This document shows positions 18,637 through 33,370 of a stretch of 64,000 nt of DNA, piece after piece (positions within the stretch are counted from its first letter, which is position 1; each line of letters opens with the position of its first letter). The notes under the pieces were generated by a model that was given only the letters and a program-made list of their open reading frames with translations, was not told the DNA's origin and searched no databases. The position numbers and the translations under genes are program-made. Source of the stretch: Candidatus Woesearchaeota archaeon CG10_big_fil_rev_8_21_14_0_10_45_16 (GTDB lineage: Archaea; Nanobdellota; Nanobdellia; Woesearchaeales; GW2011-AR9); contig PCXY01000005.1 in the NCBI GenBank assembly GCA_002762785.1, positions 188,796 to 252,795 on the forward strand. Direction: 5' to 3'.

Positions 18637-18841
18637 ATAAATCATAAAGAAAAGGTGGACAGCTTACCTGGTTTCCCACGGAATGCAGTACACCCAAGTA
18701 CGGAAGCGGTCTTAATTTCTGTGTTCGAAATGGGAACAGATGAACCCCGCCCCTATGGCCGTCCAATAGGCTCGAGAAAGCCTCCCTTTATAAAGATTTT
18801 GATTATTTTTCCACAACGATTTAAAAAGGCAGTAGAATCAG

Positions 18842-23117: not shown

Positions 23118-23279
23118 TTACGGTTTCTTCAATCTTGGCAGCACCCAATAGGCAAACACGGCAGCCACCACGATCACGCTCCAGAAGACGATATCTGGAA
23201 TCAAGCGTAATGCAAAAAGGATCAGATTAGCGATAATGACGATCAAAAAAAAGATGCCGATAACTTTAGCCGGTTTCAT
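23118..23279 (-). CDS. Putative 53-aa two-TM membrane peptide translationally coupled to hisS
   Basis: Its ATG overlaps the hisS stop as ATGA. The hydrophobic sequence is 'MKPAKVIGIFFLIVIIANLILFALRLIPDIVFWSVIVVAAVFAYWVLPRLKKP'. It is absent from the ORF track because it is shorter than 60 aa. Confidence 0.3.
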   Translation of the reverse strand: MKPAKVIGIFFLIVIIANLILFALRLIPDIVFWSVIVVAAVFAYWVLPRLKKP

Positions 23280-24607
23280 CCTAGTCTCTTGATAACGTCT
23301 TTAACGCTCAACACTTGTTCAGTGCCGTCAGTCATGTTCCGGAGTACAACTTTCTTCTTCTTCAGCTCGTCTTCACCGAGGATGAGGGCATAAGGGATGC
23401 CGACAGAACCGGCATATTCCAGATTCTTGCTGACGCCTTTCCTGAAGGCAAAGTCAACATTGATACCGGCTTCCCGTAGTTCCTTCGCCATCTTTAACGA
23501 TTCAGTCATCGTATTGATAGGGATCACATACACTTGAGCTGTTGTCCTTTTCTGAAAACCTTCCTTCTCCTTCAACACTTCCATCAGTGGAACCAGACCG
23601 AAAGCGATACCTACTGCCGGTGTATCTCGGCCGGAGAACTTGCCGATCATGTCATCCCATCTGCCGCCGGCTGCCAGAGAAGAGGTGATGGAACTCTTCT
23701 TGGCAAAGGCTTCATAGACCGTACCAGTGTAATAGGCTAATCCTCTAGCAAGAGAAACATCAAACTTGACAGTTGAAACTCCCATCACTTTCAGATACGA
23801 GAACAGTTCTTCCATCTCAGCAATACCTTGCTGCGCTTCTTCATTCTTGATCTTTTTTAAAGTCTTGAGAGTAGCTTTCTCGGTAACATAGGAAAACAGC
23901 GCATCGGTCTGTTTCTTAGAATAACCACGCTGTTTCAGCTCTTCAGAAACACCGCCCTTACCGATCTTGTCTAACTTGTCGATGGCGACGATGGCCGACC
24001 CTTTATCTTTTATCCCGGCTTCCTCAAGAATACCATTTAAGATCATTCTATTATTTACCTTGATGACAACATCCATGCTCAGATCATTGAAGACCTTTTC
24101 AGCTATCGCCAGCAGTTCCGCTTCCGCCAGCATCGACTTTACGCCGATAGTGTCAGCATCACACTGCCAGAACTGCCGCACCCGGCCTTTCTTGATCGGC
24201 CCGTCTCTGAAGACCGGACCCATCTCATACCTCTTGAACGGTAATTTCAGCATCGGATTAGCAGCCATATATCTTGCTAACGGAACCGTCAGGTCGAAAC
24301 GCAATCCTAATTTCCGGTTGCCTTGATCCTTCAGCTTGAAGATCTCTTTCAGAGCGTCGGAAGATTCACCGGCAGCAAATTTAGCAGCCAGGGTTTCATA
24401 GCGTTCGATGATCGGTGTCTCCAACGGCGCGAAGCCATACGATTCAAAAGCCGATCTGATGGTGTTCACTACTTTGTTCTGCATGATCTTCTCTTCCGGC
24501 GAGATGTCTGAAACCCCCTTAGCTGTCTGAAAGTCCATTTTCCTATCCTCGATGATTGTTTTGGTGTTTATAAGGTTTTTTCCGTCAAGTTTCATTTTTA
24601 CCTCCAT
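23276..24607 (-). CDS. hisS: Histidyl-tRNA synthetase
   Basis: Class II aaRS motifs with HisRS-specific 'AAGGRWD' are present, as is a C-terminal anticodon-binding domain. An alternative start lies 4 codons in at 24595. Confidence 0.85.
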   Translation of the reverse strand: MEVKMKLDGKNLINTKTIIEDRKMDFQTAKGVSDISPEEKIMQNKVVNTIRSAFESYGFAPLETPIIERYETLAAKFAAGESSDALKEIFKLKDQGNRKLGLRFDLTVPLARYMAANPMLKLPFKRYEMGPVFRDGPIKKGRVRQFWQCDADTIGVKSMLAEAELLAIAEKVFNDLSMDVVIKVNNRMILNGILEEAGIKDKGSAIVAIDKLDKIGKGGVSEELKQRGYSKKQTDALFSYVTEKATLKTLKKIKNEEAQQGIAEMEELFSYLKVMGVSTVKFDVSLARGLAYYTGTVYEAFAKKSSITSSLAAGGRWDDMIGKFSGRDTPAVGIAFGLVPLMEVLKEKEGFQKRTTAQVYVIPINTMTESLKMAKELREAGINVDFAFRKGVSKNLEYAGSVGIPYALILGEDELKKKKVVLRNMTDGTEQVLSVKDVIKRLG

Positions 24608-24832: not shown

Positions 24833-24895
24833 CCAGGCGGCTTTGAAGGCCTGCCGAGGAGAATTGAACTCCTGTCTCTTGAGTCACAGTCAAGA
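24833..24895. other. Three consecutive perfect stem-loops in the hisS upstream region, with unknown function
   Basis: The hairpins are 'caggc...gcctg', 'aggag aattgaa ctcct' and 'tcttga gtcacag tcaaga', with stems of 5, 5 and 6 bp. Confidence 0.3.
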
Positions 24896-25072
24896 ATCTT
24901 ACCATTAGAAGACGGCAAGCATAAGAAACGATGTGTGGGCTTTCGCCTAACGATGATGCAGAGAACTATCTATACTTTTCAAGACAGAGCAATAACTAGA
25001 AAAATCACCGACAATGAATACAATCAACTCGTGTCATAAGTATCTAAAAATAGTATTTCATTAAAAATGTTT

Positions 25073-25756: not shown

Positions 25757-25810
25757 AAAGGAAAGAAAACCAGTATTTAAAACATTCGTTTACAGGATAG
25801 AGATAAAGAG

Positions 25811-25898
25811 GGCAGCTGGGGGGAATCGAACCCCCTCCACAGGTTTGCTGCAACCTAACTCCACAGACCCGTATACTAGCCGTTATACTACAGCCGCC
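25811..25898 (-). tRNA. tRNA-His (anticodon GUG) with a genomically encoded G-1 and a 15-nt intron after position 37
   Basis: The T-arm 'GGGGG TTCGATT CCCCC' is intact and the acceptor stem GCGGCTG pairs with CAGCTGC. G-1 opposes the C73 discriminator, which is the His identity element. The anticodon loop reads 'CTGTGGA', and the 3' half 'ACCTG' pairs with 'CGGGT' after removal of 'AGTTAGGTTGCAGCA' (about 25846-25860). CCA is not encoded. Confidence 0.65.
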
Positions 25899-27418: not shown

Positions 27419-29038
27419 TCACATCATGTCAGCCGGTGATCTTCTTTCCAGCTTTTTCTCAGGAGAACCGCCTAGGATGACGTCATCTATCCGCAGGATC
27501 ATCTCGGCCACGGCAGTGGCACTGGACAAAGCCTGCGTCTTTATTTTAAGAGGTTCGATGACACCAGAAAGCCAAGCGTCCATGGTCTTGCCGCTGAAGA
27601 CATCGATGCCGATCCAGCGCTGCTGCTGGTCATGGGCTGAACGGAGCATCGTCAGGACATCGATCGGATCAAGGCCGGCGTTCTCGGCCAAGGTTCTGGG
27701 GATAACTTCCACCGCTTCAGCATACGCCTGCACGGCCAACTGCTCACGGCCTTGCAATGAGGCAGCATATGACCGCAGCCCTTTAGCCAGTTCCATCTCG
27801 ACGGAACCTGCTCCGCCGACGACAAACCCGTCTTTGACAGCGGCAGCGATATCACCAAGAGCATCAGTCACGGCCCGCTTCACTTCATCAGCGACGTGTT
27901 CAGTGCCACCGCGAACCAACAAAGTGACCGCTTTAGGATTCTTGCAGCGTTTGACGAAGATCATCTCTTCATCACCGATCTTCTCTTCATAGACAGAGCC
28001 GGCAAAGCCCAGATCCAAAGATGATAACTCTTTCCAGTTGCTGACGATCCTGGCTCCAGTGGCCCGGTTCAGCTTTTCCATGTCGCTTTTCTTTACCCGA
28101 CGGACGGCAAGGATGCCTGCTTTAGAAAGAAAATGCTGGGCCATGTCGTCGATGCCCCGCTGGCAGAATACAACCTTGGCTCCGCTGGCGATAATCTTGT
28201 CTGCGATCATCTTCAATGTCCTTTCCTCCTGATCGAGAAAAGCGTTAAGCTGCGAAGGATCGGTGATCTGGATCTTGGCATCGATCTCTGTATTGCGGAT
28301 CTCCAACGGACAATCCAATAAAGCGATGCCTGCATCATTGACAGTTTCCGGCATGGAAGGATGGACCCGTTCCTTGTCCAAGACAATTCCGTCGACAAGC
28401 TCGCTCTTGTCAGAACTTTCACCGACGATCCGCTCTACTTTGATATCAGCCAGGTCGACGATGATCTTACCATCTTTCCGTTCAGCGATACTGCTGACGG
28501 CTTTTACAGCGAGAGAAGCAAGATGATCCCGATTTGCTTCTGCTCCTTTGCCAGTCATGGCGGTGACTGCGATACTGTTCAATAAGTCAGGCTGATCCAA
28601 TGAAACTTTTTCAGCGATGTTCTTAAGGATCCTTTGAGCTTCCGCTTCGGCTAACCTGTATCCTTTGGCCAGCACCGTCGGATGGATCTCCTGATCAAGA
28701 AGATCCTCAGCTTTCTTCAGAAGTTCGCCGGCCAGGACTACAGCAGTCGTCGTGCCGTCACCGACAGCCGCTTCCTGCGTCTTTGCTATCTCTACCACCA
28801 TCTTGGCAGCAGGATGCTCGATCTGCATCTCTTCCAGGATGGTCACGCCGTCGTTGGTCACGATGACATCACCGCTTTGATCGACGATCATCTTGTCCAT
28901 GCCCTTTGGCCCCAGAGTTGTACGTACGGTCTGAGCCACCGCTTTCGCCGCGGCGATGTTGTTGCGCTGAGCATCCCTTCCAGTAGTTCTCTTGGTATCT
29001 TCCGGCAGAATGTATATAGGTTGGACGTTATTAGACAT
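27419..29038 (-). CDS. ths: Thermosome subunit (group II chaperonin)
   Basis: The 'GPKGMDKM' and 'NDGVTIL' motifs and the full chaperonin architecture are present. The ATG start at 29038 is preceded by GGTGGGGG, whereas the track start at 29050 is a GTG. Confidence 0.9.
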
Positions 29039-29087
29039 ATTTACCCCCACCTCCTCCGGGAGAAAACGATTTTATAAAGATTATGGT

Positions 29088-29109
29088 GATTAAGACTTTG
29101 TAGAAAAAG
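29088..29109. repeat. Direct repeat copy A, 'gattaagactttgtagaaaaag'
   Basis: This 22-nt copy is identical to the one at 29262-29283. Confidence 0.9.
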
Positions 29110-29111
29110 AA

Positions 29112-29235
29112 GGGTCACCGCCTCTGTGCAAGCGGTACCGACAATTTGTGGGGGTAGTTTGCGACAGGGGGAGCGCCCCTAGGGGGATGTCGCATTCTTA
29201 TCGCATCAACTCAAGAGCGAGCTGGCTGTGACCCC
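29112..29235. other. GC-rich structured non-coding element with terminal inverted repeats GGGTCAC and GTGACCC, which could be an ncRNA or a MITE-like insertion
   Basis: It contains nested perfect stems ('ccgc...gcgg', 'gcgaca...tgtcgc', 'gggg agcg cccc'). Its GC content is much higher than that of the flanking AT-rich intergenic DNA. Confidence 0.4.
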
Positions 29236-29261
29236 TCGAAGAGATTTTCTACAGAATCGGC

Positions 29262-29283
29262 GATTAAGACTTTGTAGAAAAAG
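29262..29283. repeat. Direct repeat copy B, 'gattaagactttgtagaaaaag'
   Basis: This copy is a perfect 22/22 match to copy A, which lies 174 nt upstream. Confidence 0.9.
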
Positions 29284-29370
29284 CCAGCACCGTCATCTGT
29301 TGCAGAATGGAATCTCACTATCCCACCACAACAATCTTTATTAAGAAAAATTCTCCAGACAACCGTATCC

Positions 29371-30174
29371 ATGGTGGCCATCACATTCTTAGGGACAGCC
29401 GGAACATCTGCTGTTGTCAGCAAGCAGTTCCGCAGCTCTGGCGGGATCGTCCTCCAGCAAGGCGATTTCCAGCTCCATCTTGATCCAGGTCCAGGCTCAT
29501 TGAACAGGGCTAAGGAGTTCGGCATCAACGTCCATCATACTACCGCCATATTAGTCAGCAATAATACTCTTCTTTCCTGCAACGATCTTAACGTGATGAT
29601 CGATGCCATGACCCACGGCGGCATCGAACAGCGCGGCTTGGTCCTAGGCAGCAAGACTGTCTTGCAGGGAGCAGGGGAGATTCCATCGTATCTGACTCCA
29701 TATCATAGAAAACTGGTGGAACGCATCATCCCGTTCGACAAAAGCCATAAGCTCGGCCTTGATTCGGTAGAGATCAGCGCGCTTCCAGCCAAGCATGCTG
29801 ATGCTAATGCTACTGGGTTTAAGATCCAGTTCCCTCGTGTGACCGTCAGCTATACCGGCGACACCGCGCTTTCAGAAGAGCTGCTGGAAAACCTAGGCGG
29901 TTCTGACGTTATCGTCCTTAGTGTACCATTTCCCGGCAATAAAGGGCAGGGCTCTCATCTTGATACGGAAACAGCCATCAAGATAATCTCCAGAACCCAG
30001 CCCAAACTGGTGATTATCAGTAATTTCGGTATGGAGATGTTGAAAGCCGACCCGATCCAGGAAGCAAGAGAGATACAAAGGATCACCGGCATCCAGACTA
30101 TCGCGGCCTACGACGGATTGAAAGTAGCATCAGACGGCTTCGGCATGCATCAAAGTCCGGTCAAAGGGTTTTGA
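29371..30174 (+). CDS. Metallo-beta-lactamase-fold hydrolase
   Basis: 'FLGTAGT', an 'HxHxDH'-like segment 'HLDPGPG' and downstream His/Asp residues are present in a 267-aa protein. Confidence 0.55.
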   Translation: MVAITFLGTAGTSAVVSKQFRSSGGIVLQQGDFQLHLDPGPGSLNRAKEFGINVHHTTAILVSNNTLLSCNDLNVMIDAMTHGGIEQRGLVLGSKTVLQGAGEIPSYLTPYHRKLVERIIPFDKSHKLGLDSVEISALPAKHADANATGFKIQFPRVTVSYTGDTALSEELLENLGGSDVIVLSVPFPGNKGQGSHLDTETAIKIISRTQPKLVIISNFGMEMLKADPIQEAREIQRITGIQTIAAYDGLKVASDGFGMHQSPVKGF

Positions 30175-30205
30175 GAACTTTTCTTATCAGCTTCTATAAA
30201 ATTTC

Positions 30206-31099
30206 CTATAGAAGATACTGCACCAGCCAGATCACGCCCAATCCTACGAAACAGCCGGCACCGATGAACGGCATCGCCGGATAGAACTTGTCTTTTTCTC
30301 CCAACCACAACAAGTAGGCTAGACCAGCCATAGCAAAGAAAGGTAACACCAAACTCTGCCAAAGCCCCATCTCTTTCAACAAGACACCGGCGAAGATCAA
30401 AGGAAATCCGATATCGCCGCCGCCCAGGATGGCCGTGCGGACCTTGATCGGAGCTGGCGTCTTGGTCCGGGACGTTTTCTTTACTTTCGAGACCGTCTTT
30501 TTGGGAAGCTCGTAGGGGATGACCAAGCCGGCAAAGACTTTGGCTTTGGTCTGTTCTTGAGCAAGTGTGATCATGTGTTTTGATTTCCAGACGGCATAAG
30601 CGTCGTAGATAGCGATCAGTACGAGCAGGATGCTTACCGACAATACGTTGAGCAAAGGGACCATGATGGCCGCAAGACCGCCATAGATGAACAGTTCTGT
30701 CAGGTTCTGCACCCAGAAATTCGGCCTAAATATTTTCCAGAAACCGAAAAAGACAGCGCCGATACCCGCAAAGAGCACCGGGATGAAAGCTCCGAAAGCC
30801 ACTGTCAGGGAAAGGACCACGGCCAGCAAGAACCAGACCTTCCAGAGGATCATGAAACGATGTTTCATCAGGAACAGCATCAGGATCGTGCCGACGATGA
30901 TGGTGATGATGATCGGGATGTATGATGTTTTTTCTTCCAACGGCGGCCGTTCGCCGATAGGCAGATCACGGAACTCCGTCTGCCCGGTCTCTTCCGACTT
31001 ACTTACGTCAATATAATTGTAGATGATAGCCAGGCCGATGAACTGGGCCAGCATAAAGAATAATAACAGCAGACCGGTGACTTTGTAAGAATGTTTCAT
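30206..31099 (-). CDS. Presenilin/signal-peptide-peptidase-like intramembrane aspartyl protease (A22 family)
   Basis: The YD motif 'IAIYDAYAV', the GxGD motif 'LGGGDIGFP' and a PAL-like 'PAMP' occur in a polytopic protein. Confidence 0.55.
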   Translation of the reverse strand: MKHSYKVTGLLLLFFMLAQFIGLAIIYNYIDVSKSEETGQTEFRDLPIGERPPLEEKTSYIPIIITIIVGTILMLFLMKHRFMILWKVWFLLAVVLSLTVAFGAFIPVLFAGIGAVFFGFWKIFRPNFWVQNLTELFIYGGLAAIMVPLLNVLSVSILLVLIAIYDAYAVWKSKHMITLAQEQTKAKVFAGLVIPYELPKKTVSKVKKTSRTKTPAPIKVRTAILGGGDIGFPLIFAGVLLKEMGLWQSLVLPFFAMAGLAYLLWLGEKDKFYPAMPFIGAGCFVGLGVIWLVQYLL

Positions 31100-31144
31100 G
31101 ATCTATCTTATTTCATCGATCGTTTTAAAATATCCTCACCACTT

Positions 31145-32656
31145 CTAAGAGAGAAAACTATCATCCATGGTGTAAGTCTCTTTCTGGACTTTAGCAAAAT
31201 CTTTGAACAAAGGTACTTTGATCGGCACGGCTAGTCTGGTGAATGTCGATGTGACCAAAGCTTCTCCTTTGTCTAACGAAGCGATAGTGCGGCTGTCCTG
31301 GCTTAAATCTTGAGGAGAGGATTCGATGACAGCCAATCGTTCCGAATTCATCTCCATACCCAGTAGGATCTTAGTGTTCATGTTAGCAAGGATATTCTTC
31401 GGTATCTCTGAAGGTAATTGAGTTATAGCGATAAGGCCGATCTTGAACTTACGGCCTTCTCTGGCGATCGAATCAAAGACGTTGCTGCCTTGTTCCAGCA
31501 CTTTCTTTCCCAATACCCGGGGGGCTTCTTCCAGGACGATAGAAATTACTGGTTTCTCTTCCAGCTGGCCTAGCCTTTTGTAATATTTATACAATGAAAA
31601 CATTTCAGTGGTGATGATACTGCCGATCATGATCTCTAAAGCTCCTGAGAAATAGCTGGTGTCGATGATGACAGTCTTGCTTCTTTCTAACTCCTGACAG
31701 ATCTCGCTGATGGTATTCTCGCCGGCAACATTGTCAAAGATGCCTTTGCAGTTGATCTCCGAACCTTCCAGCTCCAGGTCCAGCAAAGAGATCAGTTTCC
31801 GCTTGACGACGGCGATGGTATCTTCATGGAAATGAACTCCTTCGATCTTTTTTTCTTCCAATAGGAATCTTATCCAATTATTTTTAAATTTCTTGTAATA
31901 AACATGAAGACACTGACGTTGCGGATCAGATAAAGAGACCGCTCCTTGAAAATGTTCAGGTTTTAGTTTGGTGAGGTTGATCTTCATAGTCCTGGCTCCC
32001 GGCGGCGGGTTGTGGGGCGTGTAATAGACAACTTTATTTTTTTGAGGATGGTCTTTCAACCCCAATCCGGAACGGCCGTAGTATTCGTCGTGAGGATCGA
32101 GAACTAACATGCCGGCATAATCTTTCTCGGTGATGTCCCAGAGGATGCAGGACATCAAGTTACTTTTCCCTTTTCCGGTACTGGCTGGGATAAGCACGTG
32201 GTGAGATAAGACATCTTTTCCCGGCAGGAAGACGTTGAAATCAAGGACTTGGCTGCCGCTCCTGACGTTTCCTAAGAATAAAGGGGTGCTCGGTTTGGTG
32301 ATGAAGAATAGGTCTTCCTTTTGGATGGCTCTTACTTTGGTGAAGAATGAAGGCAGTTTTTTACAAGTCTTACTGCTGTCGGTGATAGTCAAGATTGGCT
32401 TTAAGAAAGCCAATTGATAATTTCGTAAAGATTCGTCCATGATCTGGAAACTGCCTTCCTCCAGGTTCATCCCGGAGACCATCTCTAGGTTCTGCTGCGA
32501 GATCTGGCTGCCGTAAGTGAGATCATAGACCTGCAGGATGAACTTCTCTTGCGCATCTTCGATGACCATCAGCTCGCCTAGTTCCACCTGCTGATCGGCT
32601 TTAATCCGCATGACAATCTTGCCAAAATCTCCGGAGACGACTTGTCCTTTTAACAT
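31145..32656 (-). CDS. HerA/FtsK-superfamily ATPase (DUF87-like)
   Basis: The Walker A motif '[11 protein letters not shown]' is present. The start was moved to 'MLKGQVV', because the upstream 114 codons of the track ORF look non-coding. Confidence 0.6.
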
Positions 32657-32756
32657 GAGAAGAAAAAGAGAGGTTTCTTTTTTAATTATTCTCGTGCTTG
32701 AAGATACAGGAGATTGAATGAAATATTTATATATCAGTGTATGTTTATGTTTAAAC

Positions 32757-33011
32757 ATGGTTACCAAAACGATTACCGTTACAGAAGAAGCATATAATTC
32801 ACTGAAAGGACTTAAAGGAGAAAACGAAAGTTTCAGTGATGTTTTATTAAGAATAGGAAAGAAGAGATCCACCGTAAGTAATTTCTTAGGAATTCTGAAA
32901 GGAGGAGATATCAGCGAAGCCAGAAGAGCTCTTAAGAGATCACGAGATGATTTTTCAAGAGATGCTGAAAAAAGATACAATGCACTGTTTGGACACAAGC
33001 GCAGTACTTGA
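32757..33011 (+). CDS. vapB: VapB-type antitoxin
   Basis: '[33 protein letters not shown]' matches the archaeal small antitoxin pattern. A TATA-like 'aaatatttatatat' lies about 25 nt upstream. Confidence 0.55.
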
Positions 33012-33351: not shown

Positions 33352-33360
33352 CCGATATCT

Positions 33361-33370
33361 TTATAAATAA
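33361..33370 (+). promoter_or_regulatory. TATA box about 25 nt upstream of the rpl35ae ATG, implying a leaderless transcript
   Basis: The sequence is 'ttataaataa'. Confidence 0.4.

Follow-up and report, generated by a model that had tools for sequence, protein, structure and literature searches.

The thermosome gene and the gene for an MBL-fold hydrolase diverge from a 332-bp spacer, and this spacer is the home of the element described here. All coordinates refer to the window, the stretch of 64,000 nucleotides that was analysed, and the features of the locus are collected in Table 1. The original prediction, made from the letters and open reading frames of the DNA, had named these two neighbours and had placed the element in AT-rich DNA between divergent genes. 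Annotation of both flanking genes agrees with it, and the intergenic flanks are 38% GC. The two flanking proteins match proteins of the MAG Candidatus Woesearchaeota archaeon CG10_big_fil_rev_8_21_14_0_10_45_16, a DPANN archaeon, at 100% identity. The closest matches in the protein database were 78% identical for the thermosome and 63% identical for the MBL protein, with no close relative found there. Many homologues of the MBL protein (P0002-P0120) carry a precomputed match to PF23023 (Anti-Pycsar Apyc1-like), and the name that JGI gives is ‘ribonuclease BN’.

Table 1. Genes, promoters and sequence features at the thermosome-MBL locus (window coordinates).
Feature	Position	Strand	Remarks
Thermosome gene	27419-29038	-	Cpn60_TCP1
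Thermosome core promoter	29069-29085	-	Palindromic TATA TTTATAAA and upstream block CATAATC; matches ATCTTTATWAA
Direct repeat copy 1 (GGTGATTAAGACTTTGTAGAAAAAG)	29085-29109	+	First base is the last one of the conserved promoter block
Outer block, left arm A (GACTTTGTAGAAAA)	29094-29107	+	Inside repeat copy 1; pairs with 29245-29258
T5 tract	29104-29108	-	Directly after the closing stem; candidate archaeal oligo-T terminator
Inner block, left arm (GAAGGGTCACCGCC)	29109-29122	+	12/14; A.C mismatch becomes G.U on the minus strand
GC-rich core	29110-29238		129 nt, 60% GC, non-coding; stops in all six reading frames
Inner block, right arm (GGCTGTGACCCCTC)	29224-29237	+	Partner of the inner left arm
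Outer block, right arm B (GATTCTGTAGAAAA on the minus strand)	29245-29258	-	Inverted copy of A
Direct repeat copy 2 (GGCGATTAAGACTTTGTAGAAAAAG)	29259-29283	+	Holds A' (29268-29281) and a minus-strand T5 (29278-29282)
MBL promoter (ATCTTTATTAAG)	29334-29346	+	Start codon 25 nt downstream; outside the element
MBL-fold hydrolase gene	29371-30174	+	Own protein reaches only Lactamase_B_2

Direct repeats, inverted ends and core

The element is flanked by two perfect copies of the 22-mer GATTAAGACTTTGTAGAAAAAG, at 29088-29109 and 29262-29283, and these are the only two copies in the 64 kb. The sequences and coordinates of this 22-bp repeat, with its start-to-start distance of 174 nt, are as originally described, and the repeat extends further, to 25 nt with 24/25 positions identical. 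No other match to the 22-mer with up to three mismatches was found in the window, and 100 shuffles gave none. The right edge of the repeat is sharp: the sequences beyond the two copies are dissimilar (p~0.3), and a tandem duplication running past the 22-mer was rejected. To the left, a weak and diverged similarity continues for about 25 nt (GAAAACGATTTTATAAAGATTATGGT versus GAAGAGATTTTCTACAGAATCGGC; p~0.014), and at copy 1 this continuation is the TATA region of the thermosome gene. That the 22-mer stayed perfect beside a diverged left tract hints that it is under selection and is no neutral scar, and none of the readings weighed below fully explains the pairing of a perfect 22-nt tract with a diverged one.

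The terminal inverted repeats GGGTCAC (29112-18) and GTGACCC (29228-34) were likewise recovered, as parts of 14-nt arms that are complementary at 12 of 14 positions. The inverted ends are longer than the original prediction had seen, comprising two collinear blocks over ~30 nt. The inner block is the pair GGGTCACCGCC/GGCTGTGACCC. The outer block involves the 14-mer GACTTTGTAGAAAA (A), which lies within the direct repeat and has a third, inverted copy, B, at 29245-29258 (12/14); a stretch of 190 nt thus contains three copies, whereas the expectation for the window as a whole is 0.59. B can pair with A, or with A', the copy of A in the right-hand repeat, as a 14-bp hairpin with a 9-nt loop, and together B, the 9-nt spacer and A' form a 14+9+14 palindrome. 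The full layout reads GGTGATTAA-A-AGAA-GGGTCACCGCC...core...GGCTGTGACCC-CTCGAAGAGA-B (inverted A)-GGCGATTAA-A'-AG. Five inverted pairs of 12/14 were observed; when the intergenic sequence underwent dinucleotide shuffling, just 2 of 200 shuffles gave three or more.

The GC-rich segment that these arms enclose was also present as claimed, its composition contrasting both with the flanks and with the window mean of 45.6% GC, and its stop codons in every frame agree with the earlier view that the element lies outside the annotated ORFs. The description ‘highly structured’ holds for part of what it covered. Folding of the whole element is significant (z = -2.5 to -3.4), but for the interior (29123-29223) neither strand folds more stably than its shuffles (z = -0.5 and -1.2), indicating that the predicted structure comes mainly from the inverted ends. 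The predicted minus-strand fold is a four-arm junction with a 10-bp closing stem followed by U5, and it is the same in two sequence contexts. At three positions, the minus strand forms G.U pairs where the plus strand has A.C mismatches. The plus strand, for its part, has an alternative hairpin with G.U pairs of its own and the lower MFE, so the strand argument is not one-sided.

Both junctions of the element also occur in independently assembled Logan contigs, so the arrangement was not created by a single assembler. Logan's assembly of SRR6240789 has a break within the element, at 29182-29206, and its two contigs (L001 and L002) overlap by only 25 nt. Because both contigs extend deep into the core, this break more probably reflects low coverage than a repeat signal. 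The coverage of the MAG, taken from the ‘_45_16’ suffix of its name, is ~16x. The locus was also not recovered in scans of JGI metagenome contigs, though other parts of the genome are present in JGI assemblies. Low coverage over GC-rich hairpins, or unresolved heterogeneity, could account for the break and for the missing JGI locus.

Promoters and the variable slot

The promoter consensus of this genome, ATCTTTATWAA, matches 14 times in the window where 4.3 matches are expected. It is found upstream of the 5S rRNA gene, the thermosome gene, the MBL gene and several ribosomal-protein genes, with examples at 18787-18797, 29071-29081, 29334-29344 and 33357-33367. Its position 25-33 nt before start codons or mature RNA 5' ends implies that transcripts here are mostly leaderless or have short leaders, and the spacing at the MBL gene implies an mRNA that is leaderless or nearly so. 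Distant Woesearchaeota have kept the block in front of both their thermosome and their MBL genes. Inside the element there is no match to the consensus.

The core promoter of the thermosome gene, ATTTTATAAAGATTATG, is identical at 17/17 positions in three relatives (L008, L009 and L011), and repeat copy 1 begins with the final base of this conserved 17-nt stretch. It is ancestral DNA and lies outside the insertion. On the other side, the sequence ATTCTCCAGACA, downstream of the MBL promoter, is shared with a further relative (L014). Two routes could carry transcription across the element, neither of them compelling. On the plus strand, it would start at the palindromic thermosome TATA and meet a T4 tract at 29245-29248; on the minus strand, it would start at a weak TCTTAATC box and meet T5 tracts at 29278-29282 and 29104-29108. 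We rejected a riboswitch or leader for either neighbour, as the thermosome and MBL genes are each served by a consensus promoter of their own, 25-33 nt from the start codon.

Gene order around the element is conserved as CDP-alcohol transferase, thermosome, slot, MBL hydrolase, signal-peptide peptidase and HerA. This synteny block (27419-33000 here) holds in six relatives (L005, L008, L011, L012, L014 and L015) even though their thermosomes are only ~75% identical. In five of them (all except L014), the slot is filled by a different gene or genes, mutually unrelated; the junction is a hotspot whose cargo ranges from three trypsin-like genes to small ORFs without a family match to nothing. In L014, it is an empty AT-rich spacer of 224 bp with no GC-rich element. 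Comparison of the thermosome promoter regions of relatives had been proposed as a check on insertion, and it came out in that direction, with the element missing from the syntenic slot of all six relatives and one of the slots empty. A fuzzy search of the relatives' loci for the 14-mer or the inner box found neither. We also considered a relic of a former slot gene, and tblastn of the relatives' slot proteins against the intergenic region gave no match. Deletion of one repeat copy together with the core would leave an ordinary divergent promoter region of 158 bp. Taken together, the variable slot, the intact promoter abutting the repeat and this 158-bp remainder favour insertion beside an ancestral promoter.

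Searches for copies and known families

The original prediction had suggested a search for further copies of the 22-mer and of the GC-rich core, and none came to light in the ~70 kb of this genome that was searched. Within the window, blastn-short of the element returned only self-matches and the two repeat copies, and no matching ends were found elsewhere; the ~6 kb of extra DNA from the same genome held no second copy. A covariance model built from the single sequence was run with cmsearch over the window, the loci of 11 relatives and the extra own-genome DNA (180 kb in all) and returned only self-matches.

The public collections did not return this locus, a limit that applies to each of the collection scans that follow. 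A 20-mer from the core gave two chance matches in a Paludibacteraceae coding region among GTDB genomes and missed the locus itself, so the source genome appears to be absent from that collection. JGI metagenome contigs gave 0 matches each for the core-left 20-mer and the 22-mer, so that the locus was again missed. Five patterns run against IMG/VR found nothing except two chance coding matches of the degenerate palindrome, and blastn against phage and plasmid collections gave weak AT-rich chance matches or none. No transposase or integrase gene lies within ~7-10 kb, and none of the Pfam domains within 22-40 kb of the window is that of a transposase.

As for known RNAs, a run of Rfam had been suggested as a check. 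Rfam 15 run on both strands of 28900-29500 returned no known family even at E<=10, and over the whole window at the gathering threshold it reported one 5S rRNA and two tRNAs, all away from the locus. ARAGORN found no tRNA at its default settings, and with relaxed settings and introns allowed it produced only junk models outside or across the core. A BHB processing motif in the closing stem was rejected on geometry, its bulges being 7 and 1 nt rather than 3 and 3 across 4 bp.

The 5S rRNA gene (18654-18766, minus strand) stands alone, with its own consensus promoter and a T-rich terminator, and the window shows no 16S or 23S gene linked to it. Beside the HisRS gene (23276-24607, minus strand) lie two tRNA-His(GTG) genes that differ greatly from each other, both on the minus strand, at 24848-24919 and 25810-25897; one is 72 nt and relatively AT-rich, and the other is 88 nt and apparently intron-bearing. 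Between them is a 227-aa ORF without a Pfam match.

Two further candidates were set aside. CRISPR arrays have repeats of 23-50 bp and spacers of ~30-40 bp, usually at least three repeats, and cas genes or a leader. A mini-array would here consist of two repeats only around a 149-nt ‘spacer’, and the neighbouring genes have no cas domains. Replication origins are built of ORB boxes flanking an unwinding element. The centre of this element is GC-rich, with no orc1/cdc6 gene nearby.

Origin of the element and comparison with known systems

The repeat anatomy, the composition contrast, the absence of the element from relatives' slots and the intact promoter abutting the repeat are all observed directly. 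The element is larger and richer in anatomy than first described. It is real and statistically supported, it is no known RNA, and its membership in any family is not demonstrable. Most simply, it is a lineage-specific insertion in a variable slot. Our working explanation, which we put forward tentatively, is a MITE-like or miniature integrative insertion that is present in single copy or as a relic. Such an insertion, with a 60% GC non-coding core, imperfect terminal inverted repeats in two blocks and flanking direct repeats of 25 bp, would have come to lie directly upstream of the thermosome core promoter, itself conserved, within a slot that varies among Woesearchaeota, and the apparent RNA structure would be mostly a by-product of the inverted ends. 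That mobility made the element we infer, as we do the enzyme responsible.

This explanation could take two forms. The element may be a MITE mobilised in trans by a transposase, in which case it would span 29094-29258 (165 bp), with ends GACTTTGTAGAAAA...GGGTCACCGCC and a 9-bp target duplication GGYGATTAA. GGTGATTAA and GGCGATTAA (8/9) do flank this interval, but the true repeat, of 25 bp, itself contains a terminal inverted repeat copy, and a 9-bp duplication leaves the extra 16-nt end copy (A') unaccounted for. Alternatively, it may be a miniature element integrated site-specifically, with the 22-25-bp repeat as the putative attP/attB identity segment and the right-hand site, B-GGCGATTAA-A', as a 14+9+14 core of the kind that recombinases use; this form would account for the palindromic right-hand site and for outer arms that differ between left and right. 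Direct repeats do stand at both junctions, as expected of an integrated element. The element has no room for an integrase, however, and the neighbouring genes have no recombinase Pfam domain. The 22-mer and the core, looked for as signs of a free attP-carrying replicon, were missing from viral, plasmid and phage collections. An integrated element of 174 bp is without known precedent for an insert so small.

The original prediction had suggested a MITE-type insertion, and part of that suggestion stands. The slot is variable or empty, the conserved promoter stops at the left repeat, the composition of the core looks foreign, and the inverted ends are longer than first seen. The 165-175 bp of non-coding DNA fall within the size of MITEs (<500-800 bp), and the outer and inner inverted repeats, 14-mers that are each 12/14 and collinear, agree with MITE ends of at least 10-15 bp. 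Size, TIR length and the hairpin behaviour of a transcript all fit prokaryotic MITEs (PMC10969869), and at least one Woesearchaeota genome has a high MITE density that places it among the most MITE-dense archaeal genomes (PMC11602168). Membership among the MITEs is the part that is not established, as no second copy or partner IS was found and the repeat, at 25 bp, is longer than the 2-10 bp that target-site duplications usually have (PMC11602168). Prokaryotic MITEs are also typically, though not strictly, AT-rich (PMC10969869), whereas the core is 60% GC in a genome of ~45% GC.

An inserted gene for a structured RNA was the second possibility raised originally, and we consider it unlikely, though it is the main rival. 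The locus would then be an orphan ncRNA gene on the minus strand, ~129-165 nt long and ending at U5 in repeat copy 1, whose 10-bp closing stem, extendable by a second helix of 14 bp, would close a four-arm junction and which the repeat copies would flank as terminator or insulator cassettes. A GC-rich island within an AT-rich intergenic region is consistent with such a gene, as are the minus-strand fold that is identical in two contexts, the three G.U pairs on that strand, the T5 tract right after the closing stem and the whole-element z of ~-3. The H/ACA protein Cbf5 is encoded ~7 kb away, and guide-RNA genes must therefore exist somewhere in this genome. Against this reading are the lack of any Rfam or tRNA match, the absence of C/D, H/ACA and K-turn signatures on inspection by eye, and an interior whose stability is not above that of shuffles. 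No consensus promoter lies inside the element, and nothing upstream on the minus strand fits the consensus, TCTTAATC being the best candidate and a weak one. The G.U-containing hairpin and lower MFE of the plus strand, the slots of six relatives that lack the element and the cmsearch over 180 kb that found no homologue also count against it. Less likely again is a non-functional local rearrangement, either a one-off duplication or filler DNA at a repaired break, in which AT-rich, low-complexity sequence would by chance supply part of the inverted similarity. Such an origin agrees with a sequence that is single-copy wherever searched and whose interior structure is not significant, and a single 12/14 inverted pair arises in 7.5% of shuffles. 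Chance is unlikely to produce two collinear inverted blocks and the 14-mer a third time, however, a substitution-free 22-nt tract beside a diverged one is not what this origin leads one to expect, and a core of 60% GC is hard to obtain from local AT-rich DNA.

Paired regulator sites, the third possibility of the original prediction, retain the palindrome geometry in their favour, and we regard them as improbable. The two sites would be directly repeated palindromic operators of ~37 bp for a dimeric regulator of the thermosome gene, the MBL gene or both, with the 137-bp core possibly looped out between them; the right site would be TTTTCTACAGAATC-N9-GACTTTGTAGAAAA, and the outer arm of the left site would overlap the thermosome TATA. 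The 14+9+14 geometry, the overlap or abutment of the left site with the TATA/BRE of a heat-shock-type gene and a 22-mer that is perfect while its neighbouring sequence has diverged are all in keeping with operators. The motif, though, is absent upstream of the thermosome genes of all relatives examined and occurs nowhere else in the window, the spacing of 174 bp is a non-integral number of helical turns, and the GC-rich core and inner inverted repeat are left unexplained. To an undescribed DPANN cassette we give the least credence: a GC-rich four-arm RNA or DNA module of ~150 nt between lox-like 14+9+14 sites, which a site-specific recombinase encoded by the host would insert near strong promoters and cut out again, the T5-bearing repeats serving as portable terminators or insulators.

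Returning to the insertion that we tentatively favour, the element, if mobile, would be a documented small non-autonomous one that inserted beside, and not into, the essential chaperonin promoter of a reduced DPANN genome, and insertions would then have a hotspot at the thermosome-MBL junction. Were it an ncRNA gene, it would encode a lineage-specific structured RNA without a known family. With one copy in one MAG, its general significance is limited at present, and we regard it as a modest curiosity that looks most like a small non-autonomous insertion.

Among known systems, the small archaeal ncRNAs (5S rRNA, tRNA, H/ACA and C/D sRNAs) resemble the element in being GC-rich islands of 125-165 nt with paired 5' and 3' ends, a multi-branch junction and a following oligo-U tract. 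They differ from it in that the element has no covariance-model match, conserved boxes, consensus promoter or homologue. The archaeal dif site used by XerA is 28 bp long, with inverted arms of 11 bp and a spacer of 6 bp, and is similar to ATTGGATATAATCGGCCTTATATCTAAA (PMC2958812). Identity with dif was rejected: the element has a 14+9+14 arrangement as against 11+6+11, and by hand alignment it agrees with the centre of the P. abyssi dif at 10/16 positions, AATCGGC and a few bases. From elements integrated by tyrosine recombinases, and from the CIME- or IMEX-like derivatives that have lost the integrase, the element differs in that its insert is only ~150 bp, carries no integrase and involves no tRNA target; they share with it direct repeats of 20-50 bp flanking an insert, inverted arms around a short spacer, seen here at the right-hand site, and outer arms that differ as they do in attL and attR. 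Prokaryotic MITEs, such as SM1-SM4 of Sulfolobus (PMC10969869, PMC11602168), differ from the element in its GC-richness, in the one copy and no partner IS that were found, and in its 25-bp repeat. The likeness to them is in a non-coding, intergenic element of 165 bp that ends in inverted repeats of 14 nt or more, has direct repeats on both sides and would give a transcript that folds into a long stem.
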